NCBI RefSeq assembly: GCF_000012905.2
Contig: NC_007493.2
Span: 960,001-992,000, forward strand
Length of the DNA: 32,000 nucleotides
Source: Cereibacter sphaeroides 2.4.1
Lineage (GTDB): Bacteria > Pseudomonadota > Alphaproteobacteria > Rhodobacterales > Rhodobacteraceae
Direction: 5' to 3'
The notes beneath the pieces are model-generated. The model saw nothing but the letters and a program-made list of their open reading frames with translations, did no database searches and was not told the origin of the DNA. Shown here piece after piece: positions 12,770-29,270 of the stretch. Within the stretch, counting starts at the first letter, position 1. Each line of letters starts with the position of its first letter. Both the position numbers and the translations under genes were made by a program.

Positions 12770-12846
12770 CGGAGTGTAGCGCAGCCTGGTAGCGCGCCTG
12801 CTTTGGGAGCAGGATGTCGGGGGTTCGAATCCCTCCACTCCGACCA
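12770..12846 (+). tRNA. tRNA-Pro (anticodon UGG)
   Basis: 77-nt cloverleaf read by hand. Acceptor stem is CGGAGTG/CACTCCG and D-arm is GCGC-AGCCTGGTA-GCGC. Anticodon stem is CCTGC/GCAGG with loop TTTGGGA. T-arm is GGGGG-TTCGAAT-CCCTC, followed by discriminator A and an encoded CCA. Confidence 0.9.
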
Positions 12847-12847
12847 T
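12830..12847. repeat. attL core (tRNA-Pro 3' end)
   Basis: TCCCTCCACTCCGACCAT, identical to 29253-29270. Confidence 0.85.
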
Positions 12848-12895
12848 TACCATTAAACTGTTTATTTTTAAAGACTTACGCGGTTCGGCTCGGTC

Positions 12896-12912
12896 GCATG
12901 TGTTACAGTTTT
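12896..12912 (+). promoter_or_regulatory. Putative integrase arm-type site (attL side)
   Basis: CATGTGTTACAGTTTTG is identical over 17 bp to 29168-29184. The core TGTGTTACAGT also occurs at 29157-29167. Confidence 0.5.
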
Positions 12913-12981
12913 GCGACTCATCCACACGGCTCAGGCCAGAGCTGGCGGCCCTTCGGAAGGCCCTCACGTCTGCACAGTCAG

Positions 12982-13010
12982 AAGCCCGCCGATGGCGAGT
13001 CGGCGGGCTT
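12982..13010 (-). terminator. Hairpin downstream of the 264-aa cargo gene
   Basis: Perfect 11-bp stem AAGCCCGCCGA/TCGGCGGGCTT with a 7-nt loop, 21 nt past the stop at 13031. The U-tract on the minus strand is only weak (CUUCUGACU). Confidence 0.45.
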
Positions 13011-13030
13011 GCTGGTGGTGGTGCTACGGG

Positions 13031-13825
13031 TCAAGCCGCCAGAAGATCAGGCCGCGTCATTCGCGGCTCGTTCCGCAAGCACTCCTTCCCAATGATCGAC
13101 ACGCTTTCCGGCAGGGCGACGATCTCCTGTTCAACCCCATCGAAGGCCGCCAGAATATCGGCTTTCATCACCATGCCCCGAATGAGCATCGGGCGTTCCC
13201 GGCGCGCCCCGCTACGCTGTGCGAACCAGATGCCGTAGTCACGGCACAAGGTCCACGACATGCCGTGCATACCGTTCTCACACCTGATGCCACGCCAGAC
13301 CTCCACGCTTTCGGGGAGCGCGGCGAAGGTCCCGCGCTCGTCTGCGCTCATGGCAAATTCGCGCTTCGGAACGTCCGCCGTCCACAGCTCGCGCCAAGCG
13401 TCGTAGTCCTGAAAGATGTTGTTTGAGTCCCGCCAGACCTCGGCCACGAGAGGCCAGTATTCTTCAGGGAACATGTCCAACCCGCCCCGCGCAGCCTCCG
13501 AGAGGGCTTCGAGCCTGTAGGGCCTTTCGTGGCCGAAGATGTAGCCGGAGAGGTCTCCCGCAGCCGCTGCCGCCTCAGCACGGTCCCGCATGAACTCAAA
13601 GTGTGCGTTGGTGAGGGCAATATACTCGCGCGTGAGGTTGCCGGGAAGGAGCGCATGAAGGTAACGGTGATTCACCATGATGCCGAGGTCACTGCGCACC
13701 ACATGATCCAACAGATCTTCGTGAAGGTGCTGAAGCGCGTGATCCTCATTGTCGTTTGCGGTCTCGCTCAGGCAGGCTGTCTGTGCAGCGCGCATGAGGT
13801 CGGGCAGGGCGGGGTTATGCGCCAT
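13031..13825 (-). CDS. Hypothetical cargo protein (264 aa) at the attL end of the element
   Basis: ATG at 13823-13825 with AGGAAA 6 nt upstream. Balanced composition (W/Y/F/H-rich, not Arg/Pro junk). No family recognised. Confidence 0.6.
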   Translation of the reverse strand: MAHNPALPDLMRAAQTACLSETANDNEDHALQHLHEDLLDHVVRSDLGIMVNHRYLHALLPGNLTREYIALTNAHFEFMRDRAEAAAAAGDLSGYIFGHERPYRLEALSEAARGGLDMFPEEYWPLVAEVWRDSNNIFQDYDAWRELWTADVPKREFAMSADERGTFAALPESVEVWRGIRCENGMHGMSWTLCRDYGIWFAQRSGARRERPMLIRGMVMKADILAAFDGVEQEIVALPESVSIIGKECLRNEPRMTRPDLLAA

Positions 13826-13863
13826 GTTGGTTTTCCTGTGCCGGTGTTGGGTGGTTCAATTAT

Positions 13864-13886
13864 AGCAAGCCGGCGTCCGGCTTGCT
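13864..13886 (-). terminator. Hairpin between the 53-aa ORF and the 264-aa gene
   Basis: Perfect 10-bp inverted repeat AGCAAGCCGG-cgt-CCGGCTTGCT. On the minus strand it is followed by AUAAUUGAA. Confidence 0.4.
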
Positions 13887-13951
13887 GGCGGCAAATTGCG
13901 GTAAATTGCGACTTCTCAAAGTGATAGGCGCGCCGGGTCTAGGATCTAACC

Positions 13952-14113
13952 TCAGGCAGCTTCGGCCTCGTCCCGAACGCTCTCCGGCCACAGGTCGGCG
14001 ACCTCGCCCAAGGTGGTGACGATGTGCGAGCGGCGATCAAGGCCGGGTGCCGGGTCGGCCATGAGGCGGGCGACGAGGGCGCGATACACGTCATCCGGCA
14101 GGTAATGCGACAT
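13952..14113 (-). CDS. Small hypothetical protein (53 aa), not in the supplied ORF track
   Basis: Hand translation gives MSHYLPDDVYRALVARLMADPAPGLDRRSHIVTTLGEVADLWPESVRDEAEAA. AAGGAA lies 8 nt upstream of the ATG (14111-14113). Confidence 0.4.
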   Translation of the reverse strand: MSHYLPDDVYRALVARLMADPAPGLDRRSHIVTTLGEVADLWPESVRDEAEAA

Positions 14114-14242
14114 TGTTGATGTTCCTTTTATGCTGCTTCGGTCCCTCGAACCTTGCAGGCGGCGAGTCCGCTTGCAAGCAGAAAATTATGGTAAGTCATT
14201 GATTTGCTTATGTAAGTCGTGACTTACCGGGCTTCGGGGTGG

Positions 14243-14875
14243 TCAGAACAGCGCCAGATTTGCGCGTTCGGCTGCGGCCGTTGCAGAACGCTCTCTGCCA
14301 CGTCTCTTCTGTTGATGCGCCTTGTTCGCGGCGCGCTCGCGTTCCACCTGCTCGGGGCTGCGGTTCGCCTTTGACTTGGCCTTCTGCGCGCGGCGATGAG
14401 CTTTCCGTTCCTCCGGCGTCAGGTTCTTGAGGTCGCGCCGGTAAGGCCGCACCGGCTGGCCGGTCGTCTTGAGCTTGTCTTCGGCATAGAAGTTACGCCC
14501 GGACTTGCGGAACCTTTCCAGCCGTTCCGCTTGGTGCTGTTCAAGCCACGCGCCCGCAGCCGCGTTCCTAACGTCAGCGTCGGTGCCGTAGTTCTCGGCG
14601 ACCTCGGCCGGGGTCATGCTCGCGATCTCGCGGTTCAATGCCTCGGCTTCGACCAGATCTTCGGGCGTGGTAGGGCCAAGCTCGGCCAGCAGGTCGGCCA
14701 GTAGGTCAGCCTCGCCCGGCGGCAGCGCGTCCAAGGTAGGCAGGCAGGCCGCGCTCGCCACAAACTCCGCATGTGTCGTTTCAACAGGCGGGGTGCCTAC
14801 CAGCTCGTCAAGCTCACTCATCGCCCGCTCAAGTTTCCGGCGGTCGGCGCCAGACAGATTAAGTGCCCCTTCCAT
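14243..14875 (-). CDS. Hypothetical phage-element protein (210 aa) with an acidic N-half and a strongly basic C-tail
   Basis: ORF with plausible composition. The C-terminus KAHRRAQKAKSKANRSPEQVERERAANKAHQQKRRGRER is lysine/arginine-rich (nucleic-acid binding is an inference). Confidence 0.55.
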   Translation of the reverse strand: MEGALNLSGADRRKLERAMSELDELVGTPPVETTHAEFVASAACLPTLDALPPGEADLLADLLAELGPTTPEDLVEAEALNREIASMTPAEVAENYGTDADVRNAAAGAWLEQHQAERLERFRKSGRNFYAEDKLKTTGQPVRPYRRDLKNLTPEERKAHRRAQKAKSKANRSPEQVERERAANKAHQQKRRGRERSATAAAERANLALF

Positions 14876-14890
14876 CCTCTTCTTGGTCCT

Positions 14891-14903
14891 GTTATGTTAT
14901 CAC
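14891..14903. promoter_or_regulatory. AT-rich GTTAT-repeat motif copy 1 (GTTATGTTATCAC)
   Basis: Lies 16-28 nt upstream of the 210-aa gene start. Related copies occur at 21613-21625 and 27315-27327. Confidence 0.35.
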
Positions 14904-14923
14904 TTGATGTTGATGCCCAGAGG

Positions 14924-14945
14924 GGGCCGGTGTTCGCACCGGCCC
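14924..14945. terminator. GC hairpin just after the stop of the 154-aa gene
   Basis: GGGCCGGTG-ttcg-CACCGGCCC forms a perfect 9-bp stem. The T-run (TTTCT) is on the + strand side, so its role for the minus-strand transcript is unclear. Confidence 0.35.
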
Positions 14946-14949
14946 TTTC

Positions 14950-15414
14950 TCATGCAGCGTCGACCACGGGGGCGCTGTCCGCCGCCGTCAGCAGCAACCG
15001 AGCAAGATCGCGGGCGAGGTCGCGCGAGAAGCTGCGCGGCGAGCCGGGGAACGGCACCGTGATCTGCACCCCATTGCCCTTCCGCCCGGCCGAGAAGCGG
15101 TGATCAAGGTCAATGACGGTGGTCGCGCTGCGCTTCGTCGGGTCCGCCAGATCGCGCACCAGTTCGGCCAGCTTCCGCGCGCCGTCCAACGTGAGAAGGG
15201 CCGGGGTGTCGGGGTCCAGGGCGATGTAGACGCCATCGGGGACGCGCTTGATCGTGACGCCGGGGATGGTGTCCGGGATGGTGCCGCGCGCGATCTCGGC
15301 ATTGATCAGGTGACCCAGAGTCTCGGCGATGGAGAGGCCGCCGAGGGCGGCAGCGATGGCCTTGAGCTGTTCGTGACGCTCGGCCGAGGTCAGGACGTTC
15401 CGGGGGTCGTTCAT
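14950..15414 (-). CDS. Putative DNA-binding regulator with ribbon-helix-helix-like N-terminus (154 aa)
   Basis: The N-terminus NVLTSAERHEQLKAIAAALGGLSIAETLGHLINAEIAR has the strand-helix-helix pattern of CopG/Arc-type proteins, judged by eye. It is the first gene next to the repeat-containing non-coding region. Confidence 0.5.
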   Translation of the reverse strand: MNDPRNVLTSAERHEQLKAIAAALGGLSIAETLGHLINAEIARGTIPDTIPGVTIKRVPDGVYIALDPDTPALLTLDGARKLAELVRDLADPTKRSATTVIDLDHRFSAGRKGNGVQITVPFPGSPRSFSRDLARDLARLLLTAADSAPVVDAA

Positions 15415-15436
15415 GTGATGGTTCCTCGCAAGGGGT

Positions 15437-15466
15437 TTGCACGTCGGGAAAAATCTAACCTTACAT
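15437..15466 (+). promoter_or_regulatory. Sigma70-like promoter candidate pointing into the repeat region
   Basis: TTGCAC-N18-TTACAT. It is divergent from the 154-aa gene start at 15414. Confidence 0.3.
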
Positions 15467-15496
15467 GATTAGACGGTCAAGCGGGATTTTCTGCAG

Positions 15497-15786
15497 TGTC
15501 AGGGGACAATTTCCGGGAGGTGCCGGACTGCCGAGGACACTCCGGGAGGGCCTGAACCTGTCAGGGGACAAAGCTGTCAGGGGACATTTTCCCACAAGAG
15601 AGAAGAGAGGGAAGAGAGATACAGATACTGTGGGAGATTGTCCCCTGACACGTCCCGGAACGTATGACCTTCAGAGTCCCGGAGCGTGTCAGGGGACAAG
15701 GCTGTCAGGGGACATTTTCCCACAAGAGAGAAGAGAGGGAAGAGAGATACAGATACTGTGGGAAATTGTCTCCTGACACGTCCCGG
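15497..15786. repeat. Array of TGTCAGGGGACA motifs organised as two ~100-bp palindromic direct repeat units (15559-15658 and 15687-15786, period 128 bp)
   Basis: Forward motif copies are at 15497, 15559, 15575, 15687 and 15703. Inverted copies are at 15639 (TGTCCCCTGACA) and 15767 (TGTCTCCTGACA). Each unit reads TGTCAGGGGACA-ttt-TCCCACA-[32-nt polypurine AGAGAGAAGAGAGGGAAGAGAGATACAGATAC]-TGTGGGA-gat-TGTCCCCTGACA. The two units differ at about 3 positions. Confidence 0.9.
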
Positions 15787-16095
15787 CTCACCCTCCTGCG
15801 GCTCACCACACAAGATGTTCCGAACTTCTCACGATGACACTAAAAGCCTCGTGCGTCTCCGGCGCTCTCACGGCGTTCCGTTCCGGAGCGCCTGAATGAC
15901 TCGCCAGACTCCACAGGAAGCCCGCTGGTGGGCGCTGATACCCTCCGGGGTGTCGATGCGGCGGCCGGACCTTAGCGGGCCTCTACGGGCTTCCTATTGA
16001 GATTCTTCTGTCCGGTTTAAAATCCCTTGCCGGGGGTTCGCGCGTGTGAGACAAATGTGCATCCGGGGTTCACCGTCTCGGGCTAAGTCAGGAGA

Positions 16096-16125
16096 CCCCG
16101 CGCCTCGTCTCCGGCGTGGGGTTTT
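16096..16125 (+). terminator. Rho-independent terminator-like hairpin on the + strand
   Basis: CCCCGCG...CGTGGGG stem (one G-U pair) followed by TTTT. An alternative GGAGAC/GTCTCC stem also exists. It lies directly below the tape-measure stop codon. Confidence 0.4.
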
Positions 16126-16130
16126 CCATT

Positions 16131-18140
16131 TCAGCGCCTGCCCTGATTAAACATGGCGCCGGGGCGCATCTGCCGGCCGATCTCGTCGCGCACCAGCGCC
16201 CGCATGGAGCCTTCGGTTTCCCGCGCGATCTGCTTTGCAAGATCCGCATTGGCTTCCGAGGTGCCGCCCGTGGCATTCACATTGATCGTCGGGGCAATGG
16301 TGATATTCGGTGCATGAGCCGAAGTTTCTTTCGAGAGTTTCGGTGCGAGCGGGATCTTCGCGTTGTCACTGACAAGCCCGCCAGCGGCATAGCCCTTCAA
16401 ATGCCGGTGCATCCGATCAAGGTTTCCGGCGCCGATTTTAGCGGTTGCTTCCTTACTAAAAACAAACTCGCCGCGATGGACAATCCCGGCCGGTTCAAAT
16501 TTGCCGCCTGCGCCGGTATAGCCGCCCTCAGCGAAGCCGCCGGTCAGGAAGCTGCCGAGGGTGCCGAGGAAGGAACCGGACCCTGCACCGGCCAGCATTC
16601 CTATGAGGCGCTGTTGAAGCGCCATCTCGGCGAGCTGTAGCACGAGCTGCCCGACTGCCTCCTTCGCGCTCATGGCGCCAGACAGCACACCCGTGAAGAC
16701 GCTGGTCAGAGCCTGCGCCCCGCGCTGTCCGGCTGCCTCCACGGCCCGCAGGCGCTCGGCGGCCTGCTCAGCGCTCGTGCCGGCCGTGGCATATGCTCCC
16801 GCGAGCCGGTCGATCTCAGCCGACAGGGCAGGCGTGATCTCTCGGCCCTCGCGCTGCGCGGCGACCAGAAGCTCGGCGCGCTGGCGCGCATATTCGAGCA
16901 TGTCGCTATAGGTTTTGCCCGTGGTCGAGGCGCTGGCGAGCGCCTGCCCCTGCGCTTCGAGGGCGGCGGTCTCGGCGGTGATCGCCTGCACCGCGCGGCC
17001 GTAGTCGTCGGACGTGCGGGCGCCGCCTGCCGTCCGGCCGGGGCTGGTCCCGGTGCCCGTGGCGGGCGGGGTCCAGGTGTCGGCCTTCGGCCGCCACGTC
17101 TGCTCGGTGCGCCGTTCCAGCTCGGCGATGATCTGGTTTTCTTCCTCGTCCAGCTCACGCAGGCGCAGGTTGATGATCGCGCGCCCCCGCTCGCCGTTTC
17201 TCCCGGCGGGCAGGTTGTCCAGTCCGGCGGCCTGCTCGGCCTTCTCGCGCATGATCTCGGTCTGGCGGGCCTGCAAGGTGCGGTCGCGCTGGTTCTGGAA
17301 CTCGCGGAAGCCGTCAATGAAGTCCGCAAGGCTCGCCGCCGCCGAGACGATGGCGGACTTCAGGGCGGTCCCGACCGTGGTCGCGATCAGGTTGAACTGC
17401 CTGTCCACCTCGGCGGCCTTGGCGATCAGTTCGTCGTCCATCACGATACCCAGCGCGTTCGCCTCGGTGATGGTGCGCCGGATGCCCGCTTCGCCCTGCG
17501 CCAGCAACTCGACAAACCGTTCGCCGCCCGCGCCGCCGAACAGCTCGTCGGCAATGCGGATCTGCGCGGCCTTGTCGAGCTGTTCGAGCCGCCCCAGGAT
17601 TTCGAGCATCAGGGCCGAGGGGTCTTTCAGCTTCCGGGCCAGCTCTTCGCCCGTGTAGCCGAGACGCTGGAAGGCTTCGGCCGCGCTGCCCTTGCCGGTG
17701 ACGATGAACTCGTCGGCGCGAAGCGACAGCTCCTTGAAGCCGTCCACGAGGCTGTCAACGCCGATGCGGTTCTGCTCGGCCACGAAGCGCCACTCCTGAA
17801 ACGCCCGCGCCGACAGGCCCGCCCGCTTCGCCTCGTCGCCGATCTGGGCCACGCCCCGCGCGACTTCGTGCGCCCGCTCCGCGATGCCGGTCAGGCCCGC
17901 GCCTGCGATCCCGCCTACAAGGCCGCCCGCGAAGGGCAGGGCCAGCCGCTTGAATGTAGCAGCGATGCCGTCGCCCGCCTTGCCGTAGGTCGCGCTGATC
18001 TTGTCAGCGTTCGCCTTCGCCCGGCGCTCCATGTCGTTCGCGGCCTTCGCCTGCGCGGCGTTGGCGCGCTTCAGGCCCTTTTCGAGCTTATCAATTCGTG
18101 CTTCGATTTCGACAACAAGGCCGGGCAATCCGGTGTCCAT
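16131..18140 (-). CDS. Phage tail tape-measure protein
   Basis: Long coiled, Ala/Gly-rich protein. FQEWRFVAEQNRIGVDSLVDGFKELSLRADEF and the C-terminal GGYTGAGGKFEPAGIVHRGEFVFSKEA are patterns I associate with lambda-family TMPs. I chose the ATG at 18138-18140 with GAAGGA 8 nt upstream; the track starts 2 codons earlier at a TTG. Confidence 0.75.
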   Translation of the reverse strand: MDTGLPGLVVEIEARIDKLEKGLKRANAAQAKAANDMERRAKANADKISATYGKAGDGIAATFKRLALPFAGGLVGGIAGAGLTGIAERAHEVARGVAQIGDEAKRAGLSARAFQEWRFVAEQNRIGVDSLVDGFKELSLRADEFIVTGKGSAAEAFQRLGYTGEELARKLKDPSALMLEILGRLEQLDKAAQIRIADELFGGAGGERFVELLAQGEAGIRRTITEANALGIVMDDELIAKAAEVDRQFNLIATTVGTALKSAIVSAAASLADFIDGFREFQNQRDRTLQARQTEIMREKAEQAAGLDNLPAGRNGERGRAIINLRLRELDEEENQIIAELERRTEQTWRPKADTWTPPATGTGTSPGRTAGGARTSDDYGRAVQAITAETAALEAQGQALASASTTGKTYSDMLEYARQRAELLVAAQREGREITPALSAEIDRLAGAYATAGTSAEQAAERLRAVEAAGQRGAQALTSVFTGVLSGAMSAKEAVGQLVLQLAEMALQQRLIGMLAGAGSGSFLGTLGSFLTGGFAEGGYTGAGGKFEPAGIVHRGEFVFSKEATAKIGAGNLDRMHRHLKGYAAGGLVSDNAKIPLAPKLSKETSAHAPNITIAPTINVNATGGTSEANADLAKQIARETEGSMRALVRDEIGRQMRPGAMFNQGRR

Positions 18141-18152
18141 GTGCAATGTCCT

Positions 18153-19763
18153 TCAGAAAACAAACAGGCCCTCGGCCTCGGGATCGGAGTAAGCCGACTT
18201 GCGGCTGTCGGCGGCGACGGCGCGCGAAACCGCCATCGCAGCGGCAACGGCGCCGTCAATCCGGCTGGTGCGCTGGACCTTGTGCATTCGGATCAGGCCG
18301 CTTTCGCTGCGTGAGGCGCACACGTTCTGAAGATGGTTGCGCAGGACCGGGTGCCCGTCGTGGCGGATCAGGCGACCGTTCACCACGCGCTCAAGATCGC
18401 CAGCGGCAACGCCCATAGTCAGCGGCGCCTGTCGCATCTCCACCACCGGCAGGCCCTCGTCATAGAGGCTCTGCATCATCGGCCGGGCAAGGTGCGGGTC
18501 GAAGGCGACTTCCTGCGCGTCGAAGCGGGCGCATAGCTCGCGGATCTGGTCGGCCACGGCGCTCTGGTCGATGATCGCGCCGGGCGTGGCGATCAGGTGC
18601 CCTTCATCGCGCCATCGCTCGTAAGGCACGCCGTCGCGGTCGGCGCGGACCTTGAGGTCGTCGCCGGGCACCCAGAACCACGGTTTGACACTGATCTGCC
18701 CGTCCGGGTGCTTCCACGCCGCCACCACGGCCGAGAGGTCGCCCGAGATGGACAGGTCAACGCCGATCCAGCAGGGCAGGCCCTCAAGCTCGTCCAGATC
18801 CTCGGCGAAGCGCCGGGCGTCGTAGGTGTCGAAGTCGAAGAGCGGATCGCGGCTGTTCGCCATCCACTCGTTCAAGTTGAACTGCCGGAAGGCGTAGGCA
18901 TCGCTCGGGCGGCCCTCGGCTTCCTTCGCCAGCGTGCGCAGGCCCTCAAGGCTCGGGAAGCCGTGGCGCAGGCCGGGGTTGACCTTGTGCCACGTCGCTT
19001 CGTCGGTCCAGTCGTCGCCTGGCTCGGGCGCGAACAAGATCGGCAAGAAGGCCGGGTTCACGATCTCGCCCCGCGCGACGGCCAAGGCATAGGCATATTG
19101 TTCCGCCGCGACCGTGTCGGCGCCGCGCCCGGCCGTGGTGGCGATCACGGTCAGGCTGTCGGCCACCTTGGCGGTGCCGGACTTCAGGGCTTCCCAGAGG
19201 TCGCGGCCCTTCCATGCGTGCAGCTCGTCAATCAACGTGAAGGCCGGGGTCCGGCCATGCTGCGCGCCACCATCCGACGAGATCGCCGAGAGGGTCACAT
19301 CCTCGGCGCGGAAGACGATCTTCTTTGCCGAGTTGTGCGCGTCATAGATCCGGGTGGCCGCCACGAGGCGCTTGTCGGCGCGGATGATGTTCGCGGCCTC
19401 GCGGAAGCCGATGCCCGCCTGCTCGCGGTCGCAGGCGGCGAAGATCACCTGCCCGGCGGGCACGCGCTCGGGGCCGAGGGTATGGAGAAGGGCCAGGGCG
19501 GCGGCGAGGCTGGTCTTCCGGTTGCCCCTCGGCACCAGCAGGAAGACCGTCTTCACGATCCGGCTGCCGTCCGGGTGCCGGGGTCCGTAGATCGCCCGGA
19601 CGATGCGCTCTTGCCACGGGTAGAGCTGGAAGGCCCGGCCCGGCGCGGTGCTCGCCGGGTGCTTCAGCAGGCGCAGGAACTTCACCGCCCGCTCGCCATA
19701 GCCGAACGGGTCGGGGATCGCGCTGCCGTCATAGATCCACGCCGGATAGCTGCTCTTCGTCAT
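18153..19763 (-). CDS. Terminase large subunit
   Basis: 536 aa. P-loop-like LLVPRGNRKTSLAAA, Walker-B-like FTLIDELHAW and a C-terminal nuclease region (WIGVDLSISGDLSAVV) fit the Terminase_1-type layout. The start overlaps the TerS stop. Confidence 0.85.
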   Translation of the reverse strand: MTKSSYPAWIYDGSAIPDPFGYGERAVKFLRLLKHPASTAPGRAFQLYPWQERIVRAIYGPRHPDGSRIVKTVFLLVPRGNRKTSLAAALALLHTLGPERVPAGQVIFAACDREQAGIGFREAANIIRADKRLVAATRIYDAHNSAKKIVFRAEDVTLSAISSDGGAQHGRTPAFTLIDELHAWKGRDLWEALKSGTAKVADSLTVIATTAGRGADTVAAEQYAYALAVARGEIVNPAFLPILFAPEPGDDWTDEATWHKVNPGLRHGFPSLEGLRTLAKEAEGRPSDAYAFRQFNLNEWMANSRDPLFDFDTYDARRFAEDLDELEGLPCWIGVDLSISGDLSAVVAAWKHPDGQISVKPWFWVPGDDLKVRADRDGVPYERWRDEGHLIATPGAIIDQSAVADQIRELCARFDAQEVAFDPHLARPMMQSLYDEGLPVVEMRQAPLTMGVAAGDLERVVNGRLIRHDGHPVLRNHLQNVCASRSESGLIRMHKVQRTSRIDGAVAAAMAVSRAVAADSRKSAYSDPEAEGLFVF

Positions 19764-20158
19764 CAGGTCACAGCGAGCGGGTTGTCGGCGTCGTCATCCT
19801 CGGCGGCGGTGCTGGCGATCCGCGAGCGCGACACGGGCGACAGGCCATATTCGGCCGCGAGCTGGCGGGCGGTCTGCGCAGCCCGGTTCAAGACGCCGAA
19901 CATCTTTGGGTCAATGACGCCACCGGCCGCCTGCCGCTCGCGCTCGATCTGCCGGACGATGCCCCGCGCGGTGCAGAGGTCTTCGACGCCGCCGAGGTCG
20001 GCGGTCGTGACGATCCGATCTTCCACCAGCCGGGGCAGGACGCGCTTCCACTCGGCCTTGGCCTCGGGCGACAGATGGCTCGGCGCCTTCGGCACCCGCG
20101 CGAGCGGCGCCCGGTCGGCGTTCAGGGTCGGCTTCCGGCCTCGGGTCGCGGTCGTCAT
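19763..20158 (-). CDS. Terminase small subunit, P27 family
   Basis: MTTATRGRKPT...P.HLSPEAKAEWKRVLPRL.......ADLGGVEDLC...RAAQTARQLAAEYGLSPVSRSRI matches the P27-family pattern. Confidence 0.8.
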   Translation of the reverse strand: MTTATRGRKPTLNADRAPLARVPKAPSHLSPEAKAEWKRVLPRLVEDRIVTTADLGGVEDLCTARGIVRQIERERQAAGGVIDPKMFGVLNRAAQTARQLAAEYGLSPVSRSRIASTAAEDDDADNPLAVT

Positions 20159-20469
20159 GCCGCCACCGCCTTCAGCTCAAGACCTCGCCGGCGGCCGATC
20201 TCGGCCACCTCGCGAATGTCGAAGGTCCGGCCGTCGCCCGTCACGATCCGGTCGCCCGTGGTGATGCCCGCCCGCCAGCGGATGCGGAACGTCACATGCG
20301 CGGCCTCGGACTCGCCGAAGCCGGTCGCGCTCTCGCGGTCGGTGCGCTGCACCAGCTCGGCGTGGGCCACGGCCACGGCACCCCAGAGGGTCACAACCTC
20401 GCCGGACGGGTCCACCAGCTCGGTCTTGCGTTGGATCTGGATCAGATGGCGCAGGGCTGCGCTGCGCAT
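20155..20469 (-). CDS. Head closure / head-tail adaptor protein (SPP1 gp16-like)
   Basis: Internal ATG at 20467-20469 (MRSAALRHLIQIQRKTELVDPSGEVVTLW...AHVTFRIRWRAGITTGDRIV..GRTFDIREV), the typical head-closure pattern. An ATGA overlap links it to TerS. Confidence 0.75.
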   Translation of the reverse strand: MRSAALRHLIQIQRKTELVDPSGEVVTLWGAVAVAHAELVQRTDRESATGFGESEAAHVTFRIRWRAGITTGDRIVTGDGRTFDIREVAEIGRRRGLELKAVAA

Positions 20470-20471
20470 TG

Positions 20472-20888
20472 TCAGTCCCTCCACTGAATGACGGCTTCGA
20501 GCTGCACCACGCCATGCGTATAGGCGCGCTCGGGCTGCGGGTCGCGAAGCCAGAGGATCGAAGGGCGCTGCCACTCCACCACGAAGGCGCCGGGGATCAC
20601 AGGCGCGTCGATCAGCGCGCCCATGCAGGCGGTGCCGATCTGCCGGGCGGTGCCCGCGTCTTCCAGCGCCCACACGTCCAAGGTCATGTAGATCCGCGCA
20701 ACGTGCTGGTTGCCCGAAGCCCGGCCGAGATATTGCACCTGATCGGCCTTCAGGATGACGCAGGGCATCCGGTCGGGGCGCACCGGGCCGGTGCGGACGT
20801 GATCCGCAGGCACCAGCGCCAGAACTTCGGGCGTGTCCAGCAGCGCCGCGCGCACCGCCGTCTGAAGGGCCAGGGCGGGATCAAGCAT
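20472..20888 (-). CDS. DUF3168-type tail-completion / neck protein
   Basis: 138 aa. The L..AL...L......LV...V......P....PCVIL pattern is typical of DUF3168 proteins in HK97/GTA-like head-tail modules. Confidence 0.65.
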   Translation of the reverse strand: MLDPALALQTAVRAALLDTPEVLALVPADHVRTGPVRPDRMPCVILKADQVQYLGRASGNQHVARIYMTLDVWALEDAGTARQIGTACMGALIDAPVIPGAFVVEWQRPSILWLRDPQPERAYTHGVVQLEAVIQWRD

Positions 20889-21303
20889 GGCTGCCCGCCT
20901 TTCGGATCGCCTTGCCGATGGCGCGCGACAGGCGGCTAAGTATCCTCGGCCGGGCGATCCGCCACGCCGGACGCGTGAAGGGTTGCGCCTCCATCGTCAC
21001 GGTGCCGAACTCGACAAGGTGCCCGTGGCGCATGGCGGGCGAGCCGACCGTGACCACGGCCTGATTGTCCGGGATGGTGCGCCGCCCGCCGTCGCTGGCA
21101 TAGGCGGGTGTCGTCTGGCCGGGTCCGGTGACGGCGATGCTGTCGCGCAAGGCGCCCGTGTCCACCGGGGCGAGGGCGCGCATCTTCGCGGCCACATCCT
21201 CGGCGGCCTTCACCAGAGCCGGGCGCAGCTCGGCCAGCACGTCGCCGGGGATCTGGTCGAGGCGCGCGGCCAAGCGGCGCGAGCTGTCAGAGGTTGCCGA
21301 CAT
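20881..21303 (-). CDS. HK97 gp10-family neck protein
   Basis: LRPALVKAAEDVAAKMRALAPVDTGALRDSI......HGHLVEFGT..MEAQPF is the HK97 gp10 family pattern. Confidence 0.75.
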   Translation of the reverse strand: MSATSDSSRRLAARLDQIPGDVLAELRPALVKAAEDVAAKMRALAPVDTGALRDSIAVTGPGQTTPAYASDGGRRTIPDNQAVVTVGSPAMRHGHLVEFGTVTMEAQPFTRPAWRIARPRILSRLSRAIGKAIRKAGSHA

Positions 21304-21598
21304 GGCCCGTCACCTGTTCCCGGAAAGGCGCCAGAAGATCGCGAACGCCGAACGGCACGGCCTCGGCAGAGACGCCGAAAGCAACAGCCTCACGCTGTTC
21401 ATAAAGATGCGCCGCCAGCATCAGCGCGGCTTCGACATGGGCAGGACATGCCGAGTTGAAAGCATCGCCGACATGCCCGGCAATCCATGCCTCGGCCACG
21501 GCCAGCTTGTGCGACATAAGATCCGCCTCGGCTATTGCCGTGTCAGGATCAAGGTTCAGTTGCGCCGTCAGCAGCGCGAGGGGAGACTGCGCAGCCAC
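21287..21598 (-). CDS. gp6-like head-tail connector protein
   Basis: 103 aa with a GTG start and GAGGT 7 nt upstream. LLTAQLNLDPDTA..EADL...L..AEAWI......A.......P.....A.LMLAAHLYE.RE is typical of phage gp6-like connectors. Confidence 0.65.
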   Translation of the reverse strand: MAAQSPLALLTAQLNLDPDTAIAEADLMSHKLAVAEAWIAGHVGDAFNSACPAHVEAALMLAAHLYEQREAVAFGVSAEAVPFGVRDLLAPFREQVTGHVGNL

Positions 21599-21612
21599 GG
21601 CGCTACCTCATA

Positions 21613-21625
21613 CGTTATAACATAA
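21613..21625. promoter_or_regulatory. AT-rich GTTAT-repeat motif copy 2 (GTTATAACATAAC)
   Basis: Exact reverse complement of 27315-27327. It lies 15-27 nt upstream of the gp6-like start and contains the 8-bp palindrome GTTATAAC. Confidence 0.35.
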
Positions 21626-21792
21626 CATAGATGTAGCACACTGATTCGGCCCGGAAAAGTTATTTCGGGCCTATCTTGCGCGGACCTCCCCCCGCCGGTC
21701 CCTAGATTAGTGCGAATCTCAGGCCACCGCCCCCGCGTGGGAAACGGCTTGTAGAAGGTGAGGACATAGGGAACTGTGTCGTTTAAGGTGGG

Positions 21793-23265
21793 ATGCTCGA
21801 TGGAGAGGAGCGAATTTTGAGAGTTTCAGAATATTACAAGCTCGGGCGCAACCAAGCTACATTAAAGTTCATAGATGTTGATATTAAAAACGATGCGCGC
21901 CTATTTGTGAATGCACGTGCAATCAGATTGCTGGAGTCGGAGTGGGGGGAGCATTGCGAGTATCTCCTGTCCAATTTTTTCCAAACGATTATTGACTCAA
22001 TTAGGGTCGGCGACGGGACAGCTGCGCTAACAGCCCTGCAAGCACTGCGCGAGCCAAATGAAACTCACTTGGGATTGTCTGCTGGCGAGTCTGACGGAAG
22101 AGGTCTGGGTCCCCAAAAGGCGTATCAAATCTGGAAATCATTGAAGCAAAGTAAGGCAGTGGAAACCGGCCTATTGAGTGATCTAGAGGACACGGTTCTT
22201 CTGGTGGACGGGGTTTCGGTGGATATTCTGTCGGATGTTGTTACAAACATAATCAGAGGCCCACTCATAACCTTTACTCAAGAAACGTGCGAGGAATACG
22301 GCATTCCCATGGAAAAAGGTGTGGCGTCTGGTCCGGTTTGGAACCCGGGCGCGAGATGTTGGGAAGAGGATTTTGTGAGCTTGCCTTTACCTGAAGGGGA
22401 GAAGTTAATACTGGTTCCGAAGTCAATCGTGCGGGTTGATGCGGATTATAAGGTCGGCCAGTATTATCGTCATTACGTATTGGAGTCCATGAAGATCGAT
22501 GAGATCGCTCGCAATAGTGAGCTAGTGTATACGATTAAATCAGGCGCAAGAAAGGGTGAGAGGACTGTCACCAAGACCAGCTTGGAGAAAAAATACGGAA
22601 GTCAACAAAAATCTATCTCAATCGATTACACGAATAAGCGGCCAGATCTTTTGGAGAAATACAAGAGGGATCATTCGGCTCCTACGCCAGCTCTCACACA
22701 TAGGCAAATCGCTGAGGCGCAAGGTTTGCAGCTTCCTGATTGGAAGGCCCTGCTTCAAGCTGTTACCAGTTTGGAGCCGGGAAGGAAGCAAGCATATCTC
22801 TACGAGGACGCCATAACGGATTTACTTTCCGCTCTTTTTCATCCGGTTCTCGTTGACCCGGAGAAGCAATCAGTTCTGCATGGTGGAATAAAAAGGGTCG
22901 ATCTGCGCTTTACCAATTATGCGCGGTCTGGGTTCTTTGAGTGGCTTTCTCGGCATTATTCGTGCTCATACATATTTGTCGAGTGCAAGAACTTTGGGGA
23001 GGAGCTGGGTAATCCAGAGATTGACCAAATCGCAATGCGGTTCTCAAAGGAGAGAGGCCAGTTTGGGATTGTGGTCTGCCGGAATGTCGAGAATGCGGAT
23101 CTTCTAGATCGACGGTGTAAGGCGGCGGCACAAGATGGACACGGGTTCGTTGTGGTCCTGTCAGACTCGGATCTCGGTCAATTGATTGAAGAGTCCAAGG
23201 AGGGCCTGCTTCAGACGTATGAGTTCCCAACGCTTAGAAGAAAGTTCAATCAACTAATTATGTGA
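21793..23265 (+). CDS. Unknown 490-aa protein with C-terminal PD-(D/E)xK restriction-endonuclease-like signature; candidate defence/conflict nuclease
   Basis: It is the only + strand gene in the element. It is visibly AT-rich with A/T-ending codons, against GC-rich flanks. RBS AAGGTGG lies before the ATG at 21793; an alternative is TTG at 21817 after GGAGAGGAG. The C-terminus has YEDAITDLL (helix E338), GIKRVDLRF (D370), YIFVECKNF (E397-x-K399) and then GIVVCRN. The N-terminal ~330 aa are unrecognised. Confidence 0.7.
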   Translation: MLDGEERILRVSEYYKLGRNQATLKFIDVDIKNDARLFVNARAIRLLESEWGEHCEYLLSNFFQTIIDSIRVGDGTAALTALQALREPNETHLGLSAGESDGRGLGPQKAYQIWKSLKQSKAVETGLLSDLEDTVLLVDGVSVDILSDVVTNIIRGPLITFTQETCEEYGIPMEKGVASGPVWNPGARCWEEDFVSLPLPEGEKLILVPKSIVRVDADYKVGQYYRHYVLESMKIDEIARNSELVYTIKSGARKGERTVTKTSLEKKYGSQQKSISIDYTNKRPDLLEKYKRDHSAPTPALTHRQIAEAQGLQLPDWKALLQAVTSLEPGRKQAYLYEDAITDLLSALFHPVLVDPEKQSVLHGGIKRVDLRFTNYARSGFFEWLSRHYSCSYIFVECKNFGEELGNPEIDQIAMRFSKERGQFGIVVCRNVENADLLDRRCKAAAQDGHGFVVVLSDSDLGQLIEESKEGLLQTYEFPTLRRKFNQLIM

Positions 23266-23600
23266 TTGTATCGCTCCTGCATCTGCTTCTGGCGGTCGTG
23301 GCAGGGTTTGCATAGGGCTTGCCAATTGGTGCGATCCCAGAACAGCGTCATGTCGCCCTTGTGCGGGATGACGTGATCGACCACGCCAGCGGGCGCACCG
23401 CAGAAGGCGCAGGTGGGGTGCTGGTGCAGGAATTCGGCGCGGGCCTTGCGCCACTCGTGGGTATAGCCGCGCTCGCGCGACGAGGGGCGCTTCTGGTCGA
23501 AGCGGGCCTTGCGCTCGCGGTCGCGCTGGATCTGGCAGGAACAGCGGGCGCCGTGCGGCACGAGCTGGCCGCAGGTGCAGAGGTGCGGGGGCCGGGGCAT
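23250..23600 (-). CDS. HNH endonuclease (phage packaging-associated type)
   Basis: Zinc-finger cysteines (CTCG...CSC, CAFCG, CKPCH) and the HNH core VDHVIPH....LFWDRTNWQALCKPCH. The 3' end overlaps the + strand ORF by 16 nt. Confidence 0.85.
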   Translation of the reverse strand: MPRPPHLCTCGQLVPHGARCSCQIQRDRERKARFDQKRPSSRERGYTHEWRKARAEFLHQHPTCAFCGAPAGVVDHVIPHKGDMTLFWDRTNWQALCKPCHDRQKQMQERYNHIIS

Positions 23601-23602
23601 GG

Positions 23603-24199
23603 TCAGCCCGCCAGAGCGGCAAGGGCGCGCAGGCCCTCGCGGTCAAAGTCGGGGTCGAGACCTTCCGCTAGGTTCCTCTCGCGCCGGGCGGTGTCGCCGG
23701 GGTCGGCTTCGTCGGCGGTGCCGTGCAGCGCCTTGAGCTGGGCAATCCGACCGTCGAAGGCCAGGATAATTTCCGCCGGAGTCGCATTCAGAGTCTCGGC
23801 CGGGGTCCAGCCCAGCCAGCCGGTGCCGATCTTGTAAAGCTCGGTCAGCGCGTCGACCCACGGCAGCGGCTTCGCCTTCGGGGTGGGCTTGCTGGACTCG
23901 TCAGGCGGCAGCAGCAGCCCTTCGCAGAGGGCGGCAACGGGTGCCTGCACCGCGCGCAGAAAGGGCGCCAGTGGGACGTTCCGGGCGCTGGCAAGGAAGC
24001 TCTCGGCCCGGTGGGGATCGGTCGCGGCGGTGCGGATGATCGCGTGCAGCGTCTGGGTGTCGGCCTCGTCCAGCTTCTCGAAGAGCCGGGCAAAGCCGTC
24101 ATGCAGGCGCTCAAGGATGAGCGCCGCCCGCAGAGACGGGCGCAGGCGCAGGGTGTGTTCCCTATGCGTCAGCGTGATCTCTTCGGGCGCGAGAGGCAT
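23603..24199 (-). CDS. Tail-assembly-chaperone-like protein (GTA g10-like N-half fused to g10.1-like C-half)
   Basis: The N-half ITLTHREHTLRLRPSLRAALILERL...DTQTLHAII resembles the Phage_TAC_11 pattern. The C-half WLGWTPAETLNATPAEIILAFDG resembles the short RcGTA-type chaperone extension. This is a family call from memory only. Confidence 0.5.
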   Translation of the reverse strand: MPLAPEEITLTHREHTLRLRPSLRAALILERLHDGFARLFEKLDEADTQTLHAIIRTAATDPHRAESFLASARNVPLAPFLRAVQAPVAALCEGLLLPPDESSKPTPKAKPLPWVDALTELYKIGTGWLGWTPAETLNATPAEIILAFDGRIAQLKALHGTADEADPGDTARRERNLAEGLDPDFDREGLRALAALAG

Positions 24200-25734
24200 C
24201 AGGCCGCGACCTTCAGCTTCACGAAGCGGTCGGGGTGCGTCAGGTCGGCACCCACACGCTTGCGGGCGTGGAAGCGGACCTGCCCCTTGGTCGCGAGGCT
24301 GAACGGGTCGCGCATGATCGCGAGGCCCACGCGATCCACGATGCGGTAGCCGGACAGATCGCCGAACAGGATCGGGGTGGCGCCCGCCGTCATGTTCGGC
24401 ATATCCGGCGCTTCGACCACGGGGCGGCCGAGAAGCGTGGTCGGGGCCTTCTCCGAGATGCTGTCCAGGAGAAGCGGCTCGCCCATGCCGTTGAAGTAGG
24501 TGCGCAGCTTGGCCAGCGTGGTGCGGTTCATCACCCAGACAGCATTCTGTGCATAGACGGTAGGGATCGCGTGATAGGCTTCGATCAGCGATGCAACGGT
24601 GATCGTGCCCGCACCGCCGCTCAGGGTCGCGATGCCCGCCGCCGCCATGATACCCTTCGGCTTGCCCACACCGTCGCCGTTGACGAAGGCCGCGCTCTCG
24701 GCGCGCCCGAAGCTCTCGGCGAAGTCGGCCATCAGCTCGCCTTCGAGATTGTAGGCGTTGTCTTCCAGAAGTGCGTTCGAGATGTCGGTGAAGGTCGCCA
24801 GCTCGTGCGGGGTCAGCGTGACCTGATCGAAGCTCGGTTCCGATCCGGTGCGGTCGCCGACTTCCGAGACCCAGGTCGCCGAGGTGCCGGTGACGCGCTT
24901 GGGATAGGTGATCTCGGGCGCGCTGATCTGGACGACGCGGGCATACTTGCGGATCGGGCTGAACTCGATCAGGTTCTTGAACAGCTCGTCGCCGAACTCC
25001 TTCGGCGCGAGGTAGCCGCCGTTCGCGGCGGTCGAGACGGTCAGCGACTTGGTGTCAGCGGGGTCCATCCGCTCCACGCCGCGCCGGACATAGCCGCCGA
25101 AGGCCTTCGCTTCGGCGCTCGGGGCCGGGCCGGTCGTCGTGACGCCGGGGCGGTTGGCCTTTGCTTCGAGCTGGTCGAGGCGCTGCTTCAGCGCGTCGAA
25201 CGCCTTGGTGTCGATCTCCGGCGCGTTGGCCGGGGTGGTCTGGTCTTCGTTCTCCACGGGGGTCTTTCCTTCGGTGCATGGTTCTGCCGTGTCATCTGCG
25301 GCCTTGATGGAATGGATCTGCGCGCCCGGATGACACGGGACGGCGACAACGGAGACTTCGAGAAGCCTCAGCTTCGAGATGGAGCGGCCACGGGCGCGGG
25401 GCTTGGCGGCCTCGGTCTCGAAGCCGATGGAGAGGCCCGAGACGGCGCCTGCGCGGATCATGGCGCGGACCTCGCGGGCGCGTTCCACGTCCTGCACGAG
25501 AAGGCGGCCCTTCACGGTCAGGCCCTCGGGCGTCTCGGCGATCTGGTCCCAGACGCCGATCACCTGCGTCTGATCATGCGCGAACAGCATCGGCAACTCG
25601 GCCGGGCCGGTGAAGGCGCCCTTCTCGATCACGTCGCCCACGCGGTCGGGGGTTCCGAAGGGCCAGGCAAGGCCGGTGATCTCGCCGGTCTCTTCGACGG
25701 TCAGCGCCGCCTTGATCTCGATACGGTCGCTCAT
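24199..25734 (-). CDS. Fused HK97-family prohead protease and HK97-family major capsid protein (511 aa)
   Basis: ATG at 25732-25734 (MSDRIEIKA). The protease part has LFAHDQTQVIGVW...GLSIGF. After a linker (AEPCTEGKTPVENEDQTTPANAPE plus the coiled DALKQRLDQLEAKANR) comes the MCP part, GGYLAPKEFGDELFKNLIEFSPIRKYARVV...ATWVSE...LATFTDISNALLED...VNGDGVGKPKGI. It is one uninterrupted frame. Confidence 0.8.
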   Translation of the reverse strand: MSDRIEIKAALTVEETGEITGLAWPFGTPDRVGDVIEKGAFTGPAELPMLFAHDQTQVIGVWDQIAETPEGLTVKGRLLVQDVERAREVRAMIRAGAVSGLSIGFETEAAKPRARGRSISKLRLLEVSVVAVPCHPGAQIHSIKAADDTAEPCTEGKTPVENEDQTTPANAPEIDTKAFDALKQRLDQLEAKANRPGVTTTGPAPSAEAKAFGGYVRRGVERMDPADTKSLTVSTAANGGYLAPKEFGDELFKNLIEFSPIRKYARVVQISAPEITYPKRVTGTSATWVSEVGDRTGSEPSFDQVTLTPHELATFTDISNALLEDNAYNLEGELMADFAESFGRAESAAFVNGDGVGKPKGIMAAAGIATLSGGAGTITVASLIEAYHAIPTVYAQNAVWVMNRTTLAKLRTYFNGMGEPLLLDSISEKAPTTLLGRPVVEAPDMPNMTAGATPILFGDLSGYRIVDRVGLAIMRDPFSLATKGQVRFHARKRVGADLTHPDRFVKLKVAA

Positions 25735-26051
25735 GCCGCCGTCTCCGCGCCGTTCCAACGCGTTTCGAGAATGTCGAGGGCGAGCGGATAGACCTCGCCC
25801 ATCGGGCGGTTGCGGGCGTAGGTATCGACCAGCCGGGCGGCCTCTTGCGGGGTCGCACCGCCGCCGATCAGGCCGAGGCGGATCACCTCGGGCACGTCCT
25901 GCCCCCGGAAGGCGCCCGCGACGGTGCGCAAGTAGATGGCGCCGATCCCGGTTTCGGTCAGGGCTTCCAGCTCGGCGCACATGGCGTCGGTCAGGGCGAA
26001 AGTGCGTTCGCGGTCGCCGAAGAAGGCGACGTGCTTGATGGCGTCGATCAT
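25731..26051 (-). CDS. Small protein (106 aa), second TAC_11-like / GTA g10-like protein between portal and protease
   Basis: ATG at 26049-26051. VAFFGDRERTFALTDAMCAELEALTETGIGAIYLR...DVPEVIRLGLIGGG resembles the GTA g10 pattern. It has ATGA overlaps with both neighbours. Confidence 0.45.
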   Translation of the reverse strand: MIDAIKHVAFFGDRERTFALTDAMCAELEALTETGIGAIYLRTVAGAFRGQDVPEVIRLGLIGGGATPQEAARLVDTYARNRPMGEVYPLALDILETRWNGAETAA

Positions 26052-27241: not shown

Positions 27242-27314
27242 GAGACGCGGTGCATTCCATCAAATTTATCTTGACAGAAGAATCTCACACCGCGAGTCGG
27301 GGATCAAGCAAATT

Positions 27315-27327
27315 GTTATGTTATAAC
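27315..27327. promoter_or_regulatory. AT-rich GTTAT-repeat motif copy 3 (GTTATGTTATAAC)
   Basis: It overlaps the integrase stop codon and lies 74-86 nt upstream of the portal start. It is the reverse complement of 21613-21625. Confidence 0.35.
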
Positions 27328-29252: not shown

Positions 29253-29270
29253 TCCCTCCACTCCGACCAT
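29253..29270. repeat. attR core
   Basis: TCCCTCCACTCCGACCAT. The preceding element-side bases (GGGTTatgt) retain partial similarity to the tRNA T-arm (GGGTTcgaa). Confidence 0.85.

Follow-up and report, generated by a model that had tools for sequence, protein, structure and literature searches.

In iteron plasmids such as pPS10, pSC101, F (ori2) and R6K, the control region is ordered as an AT-rich region, direct iterons, a rep promoter with its operator, and the rep gene. Another kind of repeat array is read by small ribbon-helix-helix (RHH) proteins, among them Arc/Mnt, CopG, ParD, omega of pSM19035, ParG at parH and ParR at parC, whose specificity resides in an N-terminal beta-strand and whose sites, usually abutting at 7–11-bp spacing, overlap a regulated promoter or form a centromere for a ParA/ParM NTPase. 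At the replication origin of the staphylococcal pathogenicity islands (SaPIs), a central AT-rich region is flanked on either side by island-specific iterons of opposite direction (PMC9371898). Here we describe a repeat array that shares features with all three. It occupies positions 15497–15786 of a 32-kb stretch of the Cereibacter sphaeroides 2.4.1 genome (NC_007493.2, positions 960,001–992,000), hereafter the window, lies within a ~16.4-kb element integrated at a tRNA-Pro gene, and adjoins the gene of a 154-aa RHH-like protein, p154 (14950..15414, minus strand), the candidate binder of its repeats.

Scanning of the window located five plus-strand copies of the 12-mer TGTCAGGGGACA, starting at 15497, 15559, 15575, 15687 and 15703, and two inverted copies, an exact one at 15639 and one at 15767 that carries a single mismatch (TGTCAGGAGACA). 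Every one of the seven matches to the dyad TGTC-N4-GACA in the window falls inside 282 bp (15497–15778), where 0.33 would be expected from shuffled sequence, and none of 100 shuffles reached seven. An earlier, sequence-only reading of this stretch had pointed to seven 12-mers in two units of 128-bp period; the array is indeed real and no copy lies elsewhere in the window, with the amendment that six of the seven copies are exact. The lone, promoter-proximal 12-mer, S1 (15497..15508, plus strand, flank ATTTCC), stands apart from two repeat units. Repeat unit 1 (15546–15658) comprises the direct sites S2 (15559–15570) and S3 (15575–15586), the inner arms TCCCACA (15590–15596) and TGTGGGA (15629–15635), a purine-rich core of 32 nt between these arms (15597–15628), and the inverted site S4 (15639–15650). 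Repeat unit 2 (15674–15786), a tandem duplicate of unit 1 at a period of 128 bp, comprises the direct sites S5 (15687–15698) and S6 (15703–15714), the same inner arms (TCCCACA, 15718–15724; TGTGGGA, 15757–15763), a core at 15725–15756, and the mismatched inverted site S7 (15767–15778). Arms of 22 nt, 91% complementary, surround 32 nt in each unit, in agreement with the ~22-bp pairing read from the sequence earlier, while the ~97% identity then given for the units applies to their palindromic core (3 differences in 92 nt) and falls to 93% over 113 nt.

The period of 128 bp is not a multiple of 3, and the two open reading frames (ORFs) drawn through the repeats lack the bias in third-position GC content (GC3) that is typical of genes in this 68%-GC genome, in keeping with the conservation at the nucleic-acid level proposed previously. 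The double 12-mer found no exact match in 185,579 species genomes and none in IMG/VR viral contigs, indicating that the motif is lineage-specific, and among the loci fetched for comparison it was seen only at the homologous position of related elements. A T-rich flank of the 12-mer is common to the window and to a relative in Sinorhizobium meliloti; the 12-mer together with such a flank, as in TGTCAGGGGACAATTTCC, probably makes up the functional site.

The related loci compared were those of Cereibacter changlensis (L001–3, L018), CP047031 (L004), Pseudotabrizicola (L019) and S. meliloti pSymB (L025, annotated), together with metagenome loci (L005–16, L021–24, L026–28), some of them marine. 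Synteny is kept among them, running through the connectors, TerS, TerL, a tape-measure-like gene (with or without a minor tail gene), a gap, p154 and a p210-like gene. The window's plan recurs in ten further elements (L001, L005, L006, L012, L014, L016, L019, L021, L022 and L025), from Rhodobacterales to Sinorhizobium: in gene direction, an inverted site of 12–19 bp is followed by a spacer of 32–77 nt, one to four direct copies, a promoter and the p154 homolog, with a variant in L012, L016 and L021, where two or three copies precede one inverted copy. A conservation analysis in homologous elements, as the sequence-only reading had advised, thus found the architecture kept and the site sequence changed. 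The site is TGTCAGGGGACA in the window, L004 and L001 and TGTCCGGGGACAATTTCTC in S. meliloti; elsewhere it is GCGTCCGACGACA (L005), GTGTCCGTCATCAAA (L006), GAGGGTAATGGTTTTGC (L012), GGGGGTAACGGTTTTGC (L021), CGTGTGAAATCATTTTCG (L014), TGTTCCTGCGAATTTCTTG (L016) or GCGCAAAAGCGTAGAA (L019), and because these sequences are not homologous a global MAFFT alignment of the gaps was of little use. Most sites contain an internal dyad, such as TGTC-N4-GACA in the window, GAAAT-N-ATTTC in L014, GTC-C-GAC in L005 and AAACAGTATACTGTTT in L026. Two tandem copies of the module are present only in the window and in its near-identical sister L004, from which it follows that the 128-bp period reflects a recent, lineage-specific duplication.

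Two observations on these relatives are recorded for their own sake. In L004 (CP047031.1 965738–986043), from a second strain, three ORFs are short or split (TerL of 467 aa, tape-measure protein of 501+152 aa, p154 of 101 aa), and the locus differs from the window chiefly in homopolymer lengths, including single-base differences in the gap before p154 such as TTTGTCCCCCTGACA, which suggests either long-read sequencing errors or a decaying copy. In four other relatives, a GC-rich block stands just upstream of the site module (L001 2600–2660, L005 8050–8100, L006 7125–7195, L014 2545–2615); it is 82–90% identical between elements whose proteins are only ~40–57% identical, and consists of two or three mini-hairpins with GAA loops (GCGAAGC, GGCCGAAGGCC, GCCGAAGGC), the stems of which differ by compensatory changes that keep the pairing. 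The window lacks this block and has merely a weaker motif of the kind, tccgGAAcgga, near 15877–15887.

An indication of what reads the array is that the site sequence changes together with a few residues of p154. The N-terminal strand of this protein reads PRNVLTSAER in the window, PKNLLTSAER in L001 and PINVRLDPRR in S. meliloti, and among members with known sites only these three have Asn-Val/Leu at the strand columns; all three use TGTCNGGGGACA, despite an overall identity of 41–62%. A T-I-Q strand is shared by L012, L021 and L019, which have a GCAAAA core at 39–62% identity, and an N-P-[TV]-[IV]-K strand by L023 and L026, which have a GTATAC core. Conversely, the proteins of L012 and L016 are 73% identical, yet their strands differ (TIQLAPER versus AIKLSRER) and their sites are unrelated. 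TerS does not track the site, being 57% identical between the window and L019, where the site is unrelated, and 54% identical between the window and L025, where it is the same. Identity over whole proteins (TerS, TerL, connectors, p154 and p210) failed to single out the binder, and it was the residue-level comparison of the strand that did so. Because the site sequence follows these few p154 N-terminal residues and neither overall identity nor TerS, the array is, as judged from sequence comparison, a protein-binding array rather than an RNA gene or a miniature inverted-repeat transposable element (MITE), and the repeats are very probably the binding sites of p154. Of the options offered by the sequence-only reading, an iteron-type origin or operator array for the adjacent RHH-like protein is thereby supported as regards the protein, with a layout that is kept and repeats that change with its strand, a result compatible with either an origin or an operator.

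p154 combines an N-terminal RHH-like module with a duplicated beta-beta-beta-alpha domain. In an AlphaFold2 (AF2) monomer model (predicted local distance difference test score, pLDDT, 83), residues 1–10 are disordered and helices at 11–23 and 29–43 precede the duplicated domain; the N-terminal module holds a variable strand (residues ~5–10) and a conserved G-x-S turn. When 33 family members were aligned, the variable part proved to be the ~8 residues before a conserved ER/RR-x2-QLKAI, a region that in RHH proteins is the DNA-reading strand. Profile comparison gave a weak match to ParG (1p94; E=0.056–0.099), in which 'NPTIKLPAERLEQLKAIAAALGLSIADTVGHLIRA' of the family lines up with the ParG strand, first helix, G-x-S turn and second helix, and matches to the ParD antitoxin in 5 of the 33 members (best E=0.0015) and to CopG/RHH_1 in 2 of them, so that the signals for an RHH fold in the models and profiles are weak but concordant. 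A Foldseek search of the p154 model against PDB and BFVD returned nothing at E<=0.001, leaving the C-terminal domain without a structural relative there, and no Pfam, NCBIfam or PHROG family matched the protein. Searching by tblastn found no match among 50,697 phage records, and S. meliloti pSymB was the sole match in the plasmid collection. The family itself is sizeable: a word-indexed search yielded the 33 proteins, and an exhaustive profile search 506 clusters at 50% identity, 342 of them with E<=1e-10, nearly all of 140–160 aa and matched over their full length. We consider p154 to represent a candidate new domain family.

The repeats fill the p154-proximal half of a 716-bp gap (15415–16130) that is the main non-coding region of the element and in which GANTC (CcrM) sites are, by eye, no commoner than chance. 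Between the lone 12-mer and the p154 start codon lies a sigma-70-type promoter of the p154 operon, TTGACC-N17-TAGATT (15452..15480, minus strand), with the end of S1 16 bp upstream of its −35 hexamer. Of 13 related elements, 12 have a promoter of the form TTGNNN-N17-TAnnnn 22–37 nt upstream of the ATG, and in all 13 the sites lie on the p154 promoter or at most ~100 bp upstream of it. The nearest site ends 9–21 bp from the −35 hexamer in six elements, near −60 and thus in a class-I-like position, and the distances from module to promoter fall into two classes, ~15 bp and ~90 bp. The window's sites do not overlap the region from −35 to +1; such overlap is limited to L023 and L026, two of a group of compact relatives, in whose gaps (L023 165–217; L026 2937–3000) two palindromes in tandem, with a GTATAC core, lie across a TTGCNT-N17-TATAAR promoter. 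An arrangement of operators sandwiching a promoter was also considered and is unsupported, since the scans, which covered canonical sigma-70 promoters, gave the p154 promoter alone and detected none inside the spacers of the four elements scanned. Most elements have, in addition, a separate small palindrome within the p154 promoter, in the interval from −35 to −10, for example TCTAA-N10-TTAGA (window and L012), AGATACCACTCTACA/TGTAGAGTAGTGTCT (L014) and AACACATATAC/GTATATGTGTT (S. meliloti). Since this palindrome varies independently of the p154 strand, a second regulator or a host factor may be involved.

The DNA between the opposed sites has a distinctive composition. Each core of the window contains a homopurine run of 24 nt on the plus strand (15596..15619 in unit 1, pyrimidine-rich on the gene-sense strand, and an identical run at 15724..15747 in unit 2), and these are the sole purine/pyrimidine runs of at least 15 nt in the 32 kb. 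The run at 15597–15619 is a 21/23 mirror repeat, and such a purine tract could extrude H-DNA under supercoiling. The 31-mer of the unit 1 core has a duplex free energy of ~−37 kcal/mol, compared with a window mean of −48.4 (standard deviation 3.8), placing the cores ~3 standard deviations below the mean stability. Across the elements, spacers have a GC content of 0.19–0.44 versus 0.44–0.60 for whole gaps, and although spacers make up ~13% of the gaps, the most AT-rich 40-mer of the gap falls inside the spacer in 7 of 10 elements; in the remaining 3, the window included, it lies in the promoter region. Long purine/pyrimidine runs occur in the spacers of the window (24 nt), L019 (33 nt, a (CTT)n run with a (CTT)9 loop), L012 (17 nt) and L001 (14 nt). 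The spacer is pyrimidine-rich on the gene-sense strand, with C exceeding G, in 8 of 11 elements, and the loop of L016 is purine-rich on the opposite strand. The window and L001 have identical sites and spacers that are alike in little beyond composition, from which we conclude that the constraint on the spacer is compositional and not at the level of sequence. Comparison of these spacers therefore indicates the kind of constraint that an unwinding element would show.

Set beside the origins of SaPIs and other phage-inducible chromosomal islands (PICIs), the module likewise has island-specific short repeats in opposite orientation, with a minimum of one or two to either side of an AT-rich core, next to the gene of a specificity-matched protein within a phage-satellite-like island. 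It differs in that SaPIs have a Rep that loads itself as a helicase and binds the origin through a winged-helix domain, whereas the putative binder here is a 154-aa RHH-like protein without an ATPase, in an element that encodes no helicase or primase; and the SaPI origin, built of 5–6-mers, lies 3' of rep, whereas the present array of 12–19-bp dyads lies 5' of its gene. Iteron plasmids offer a match in order, most relatives running from AT-rich core through direct repeats and promoter to the cognate binder gene, and the compact relatives having inverted-repeat operators on the promoter as at rep promoters. In contrast, plasmid initiators are winged-helix proteins of ~30–40 kDa, iterons are regularly spaced at ~22 bp rather than at 16–38 bp, DnaA boxes are usual rather than confined, as DnaA-box-like motifs are here, to one lineage, and there is no counterpart to the additional opposed site beyond the core. 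With the RHH arrays the locus shares a small RHH-like protein encoded directly downstream of direct and inverted repeats and specificity assigned to the N-terminal beta-strand, the weak profile matches being precisely to the ParG, ParD and CopG families. The wider spacing of the sites, the bracketed AT-rich purine/pyrimidine core, the p154 C-terminal domain without a structural relative, and the lack both of promoter overlap in the window and of a partition NTPase set it apart from them.

The likeliest single function, though one we hold only tentatively, is an origin of the SaPI or iteron-replicon type combined with autoregulation, in preference to an operator or insulator. In this model, the seven 12-mers would be cognate sites of p154, encoded immediately downstream, and the TGTC-N4-GACA dyad would suit an RHH dimer; the C-terminal domain of p154 would join dimers into larger assemblies. 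Within a unit, a single site and a pair of sites stand opposed across the 32-nt core, which is relatively AT-rich, strand-asymmetric (homopurine/homopyrimidine) and potentially capable of forming H-DNA, and a p154 complex assembled on the facing sites might strain and open it. Vegetative replication of the excised element would then start from this region, while the promoter-proximal site, centred near −60, would tie p154 occupancy to how strongly the p154 operon is expressed. Because the element encodes neither helicase nor primase, the host or a helper phage would need to supply both, and the two units of the window would represent a recent tandem duplication of one such module. GCGAAGC and CCGAAGG mini-hairpins adjoin the module in four relatives and are counted in favour of an origin; such heptamers occur at the G4 origin and at ssiA of RSF1010 (PMC13037366). 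We think it rather unlikely, if conceivable, that the p154 family is a helicase-less, RHH-based replication initiator for a new class of alphaproteobacterial elements with capsid and tape-measure genes. The detailed picture of such an origin, in which dimers on opposed sites open an H-DNA-prone core and recruit a host or helper helicase in functional convergence with SaPI origins, is likewise doubtful.

Several points weigh against an origin. Characterised RHH proteins are, to our knowledge, repressors, centromere-binding proteins or relaxosome accessory factors, and we know of none that is a replication initiator; p154, being RHH-like, falls outside the known initiator classes (winged-helix Rep, helicase-Rep, RepA_N and HUH). 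No helicase, primase, polymerase, known initiator or helix-turn-helix (HTH) repressor was detected in the element, nor any helicase, primase, polymerase or known initiator domain in any ORF of the relatives; domain searches of the element's ORFs found no recognisable rep gene or CI/Cro switch, just as the sequence-only reading had remarked. The cores of the window, with a GC content of 0.42–0.44, are only moderately AT-rich and are not the least stable stretch of the gap, the promoter region being less stable, and the site-to-site spacing of 16–38 bp is not helically phased. The DnaA-box-like motifs TTTCCCACA beside the window's cores match 8/9 positions of a relaxed consensus by eye but occur in this lineage only, and since they are not conserved in relatives they were not relied upon. 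In the compact relatives (L023, L026–28) the gap after the tape-measure gene is reduced to 54–63 bp, no AT-rich bracketed module was found within 3 kb, and the layout looks, from its sequence, like plain autorepression, so the module is not universal. The co-variation, too, is based on about a dozen elements and is imperfect, the strands of L005 and L023 being near-identical and their sites different.

The main rival is purely transcriptional control, in which p154 would be an RHH autoregulator or master regulator and the array an operator or insulator complex without a replication role, a reading we judge quite possible, if less probable than the combined one. Sites close to the p154 promoter would adjust its activity through class-I-like activation or repression, and the facing sites would loop the flexible AT-rich spacer into a stable nucleoprotein plug that insulates the early operon from the late one, whose last gene is the tape-measure gene. 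The RHH relatives detected (ParD, CopG/RHH_1, ParG) are all regulators or centromere binders, the proximity of sites to the p154 promoter holds in 13/13 elements and approaches the −35 hexamer in six of them, the palindromes over −35/−10 in the compact relatives form a classical autorepressor layout, and no replicase is encoded. Left unexplained by this reading is the AT-rich, often homopurine/homopyrimidine core between opposed sites in 11 divergent elements. No sigma-70-like promoter was detected within the spacers of the four elements scanned. A fixed operator-promoter geometry is also wanting, given the two distance classes, and many elements already have the separate small palindrome between −35 and −10. 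The two readings are in any case compatible, because plasmid initiators also autoregulate.

Other explanations fare less well. A packaging site of the lambda cosB or P1 pac type, with the sites flanking a bendable core so as to position HNH, TerS and TerL for cos cleavage and p154 as an accessory factor, is improbable. An element that encodes HNH, a P27-type TerS and TerL therefore needs a cos site, and the gap that holds the array is its main non-coding region; in lambda cosB, opposed R sites likewise lie across a bend made by integration host factor (IHF). However, no match to the IHF consensus (<=1 mismatch) lies in 15497–15786, the matches sitting instead at the att ends; the divergence of TerS, encoded 4 kb away, shows no correspondence to site identity; the spacer, unlike a nicking site, is not conserved even between elements with the same site; the module is missing from the compact relatives; and we know of no RHH terminase subunit. 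Equally hard to credit is an RNA element, whether a hairpin of the inverted sites that, on late-operon read-through, offers a C-rich and G-poor loop for Rho loading (rut), or a separate small RNA (sRNA) with CU-rich loops directed against Shine-Dalgarno (SD) sequences (minus strand) or GA-rich sponge loops (plus strand), the last two having been options of the sequence-only reading. The two strands fold much more stably than shuffled sequence (z-scores of −5.7 and −6.3), the gene-sense spacer is pyrimidine-rich in most elements, and a plus-strand terminator at 16095–16131, with a counterpart in L001, hints at transcription in the direction of the tape-measure gene. Such z-scores are a trivial outcome of inverted repeats. 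Each site is itself a dyad, and conservation is as strict for the lone site and the direct copies that remain unpaired as it is for the paired copies. Rfam gave no match to the region at the gathering score (the best in a scan to E<=10, at E=0.12, being to an unrelated miRNA model, with nothing better than E=0.1), and a sigma-70 and terminator scan found no promoter before the units and no terminator after them. Loop sequence and polarity vary without a common CCUCC-type motif, and the site co-varies with a protein strand; the anti-SD and sponge options are thus not sustained. Least probable by far is a selfish or neutral palindromic repeat, of the MITE or repetitive extragenic palindrome (REP) kind, or a slippage product without function for the element. 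The units are indeed a recent tandem duplication (93–97% identity), and a single one is evidently enough in relatives, but no other copy exists in the window, the searches of species genomes and IMG/VR found no exact double 12-mer, the copies in fetched loci are solely at the homologous position, and the architecture is conserved from Rhodobacterales to Sinorhizobium.

The element that carries the array is bounded by a repeat of the tRNA-Pro gene (12770–12846), whose final 18 nt, TCCCTCCACTCCGACCAT, recur at 29253–29270. The two copies of this 18-bp direct repeat, attL at the 3' end of tRNA-Pro (12830..12847) and attR adjoining the integrase gene (29253..29270), bracket the ~16.4 kb in question (12830–29270). 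Just upstream of the integrase start are two direct ACTGTAACAC repeats with a period of 13 bp (29158–29180), and IHF-consensus-like sites lie beside attR (29203–29215) and attL (12854–12866); these may plausibly serve attP as its arm-type and IHF sites. Read along the minus strand, the gene order begins with a DUF6538-type tyrosine integrase (27316–29133), a portal, a protease-capsid fusion, a 198-aa protein (23603–24199) with a weak match to tail-assembly chaperones, and HNH. After a low-GC gene on the plus strand, it continues with gp6-, gp10- and gp17-like connectors, a head-closure protein, the P27-type TerS, TerL, the 671-aa tape-measure-like protein (16131–18146, minus strand) and the 716-bp gap. 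Beyond the gap are p154, the next operon gene p210 (14243..14875, minus strand), small ORFs and a 264-aa protein. The conserved p210, of 210 aa, has an acidic N-terminus, a basic C-terminus and no family match; no Pfam, NCBIfam or PADLOC function was found for p210, p264 or the other small ORFs.

The plus-strand gene (21793–23265), the only one in the element, coincides with a GC trough (0.49 versus ~0.67). Searches with its 490-aa product gave PDC-M36A, a candidate defence protein in PADLOC (E=2e-37), and PHROG 27295, while Pfam DUF8370 was recognised in the L004 ortholog; the gene is likely to be anti-phage cargo. Every other gene is co-oriented, and transcription from the p154 promoter could therefore, speculatively, cross attP into the integrase and late genes once the element is circularised. 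Capsid-forming PICIs (cfPICIs) are the nearest described counterpart, as ~16-kb tRNA-integrated islands with integrase, HNH, TerS, TerL, portal, protease-capsid fusion, head-tail connectors and candidate defence cargo. The present element differs from them in its tape-measure-like gene and weak tail-assembly-chaperone match and in its gene order (integrase, portal ... TerS, TerL, tape-measure gene, gap, p154); neither a tail tube nor an alpA or pri-rep module was found in it, and the nearest TerL among the 50,697 phage records is ~33% identical. The element may represent an undescribed satellite family.

The half of the gap beyond the repeats has features of its own. An intrinsic-terminator-like hairpin with a T-run (16095..16131, plus strand) faces the 3' end of the tape-measure-like gene, closes the far side of the gap and points opposite to the minus-strand genes of the element; it has a counterpart in L001 (2243–2270, minus strand). 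Its presence implies a transcript of ~330–450 nt from the repeat region toward the tape-measure gene, for which no promoter was found. Nearby is a 16-nt inverted repeat (15909–15924 and 15986–16001) with the core AGGAAGCCCG/CGGGCTTCCT, to which a 28-nt stretch of L001 corresponds at 96% identity and which a GGCTTC...GGAAGCC hairpin in L006 resembles; it adjoins a GTGAGTC-like motif common to six elements. Such a repeat could terminate the late operon or stabilise its RNA, and cos is a further possibility.

As a kind of feature, arrays of iterons or operators are familiar and therefore not new. What appears new is the combination of a putative RHH-type reader from an unnamed family of ~500 clusters with opposed sites around a homopurine/homopyrimidine core; its setting, in undescribed alphaproteobacterial tRNA-integrated islands that have a capsid, a terminase and a tape-measure-like protein and lack a replicase; and natural co-variation data that, at the level of sequence, tie strand residues to site sequence. 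Should the array prove to be an origin, no earlier example of an RHH protein as an origin-recognition factor is known to us, and it would show how a satellite-like element without a replicase gets copied. If it is an operator only, it still identifies where an undescribed family of ~16-kb islands is switched, and by which likely master regulator; these islands, of Rhodobacterales and Rhizobiales, encode capsid, terminase and tape-measure-like protein and carry defence cargo. Either way, the naturally occurring pairs of strand residues and sites form a small data set on the 'recognition code' of an RHH family not yet characterised.

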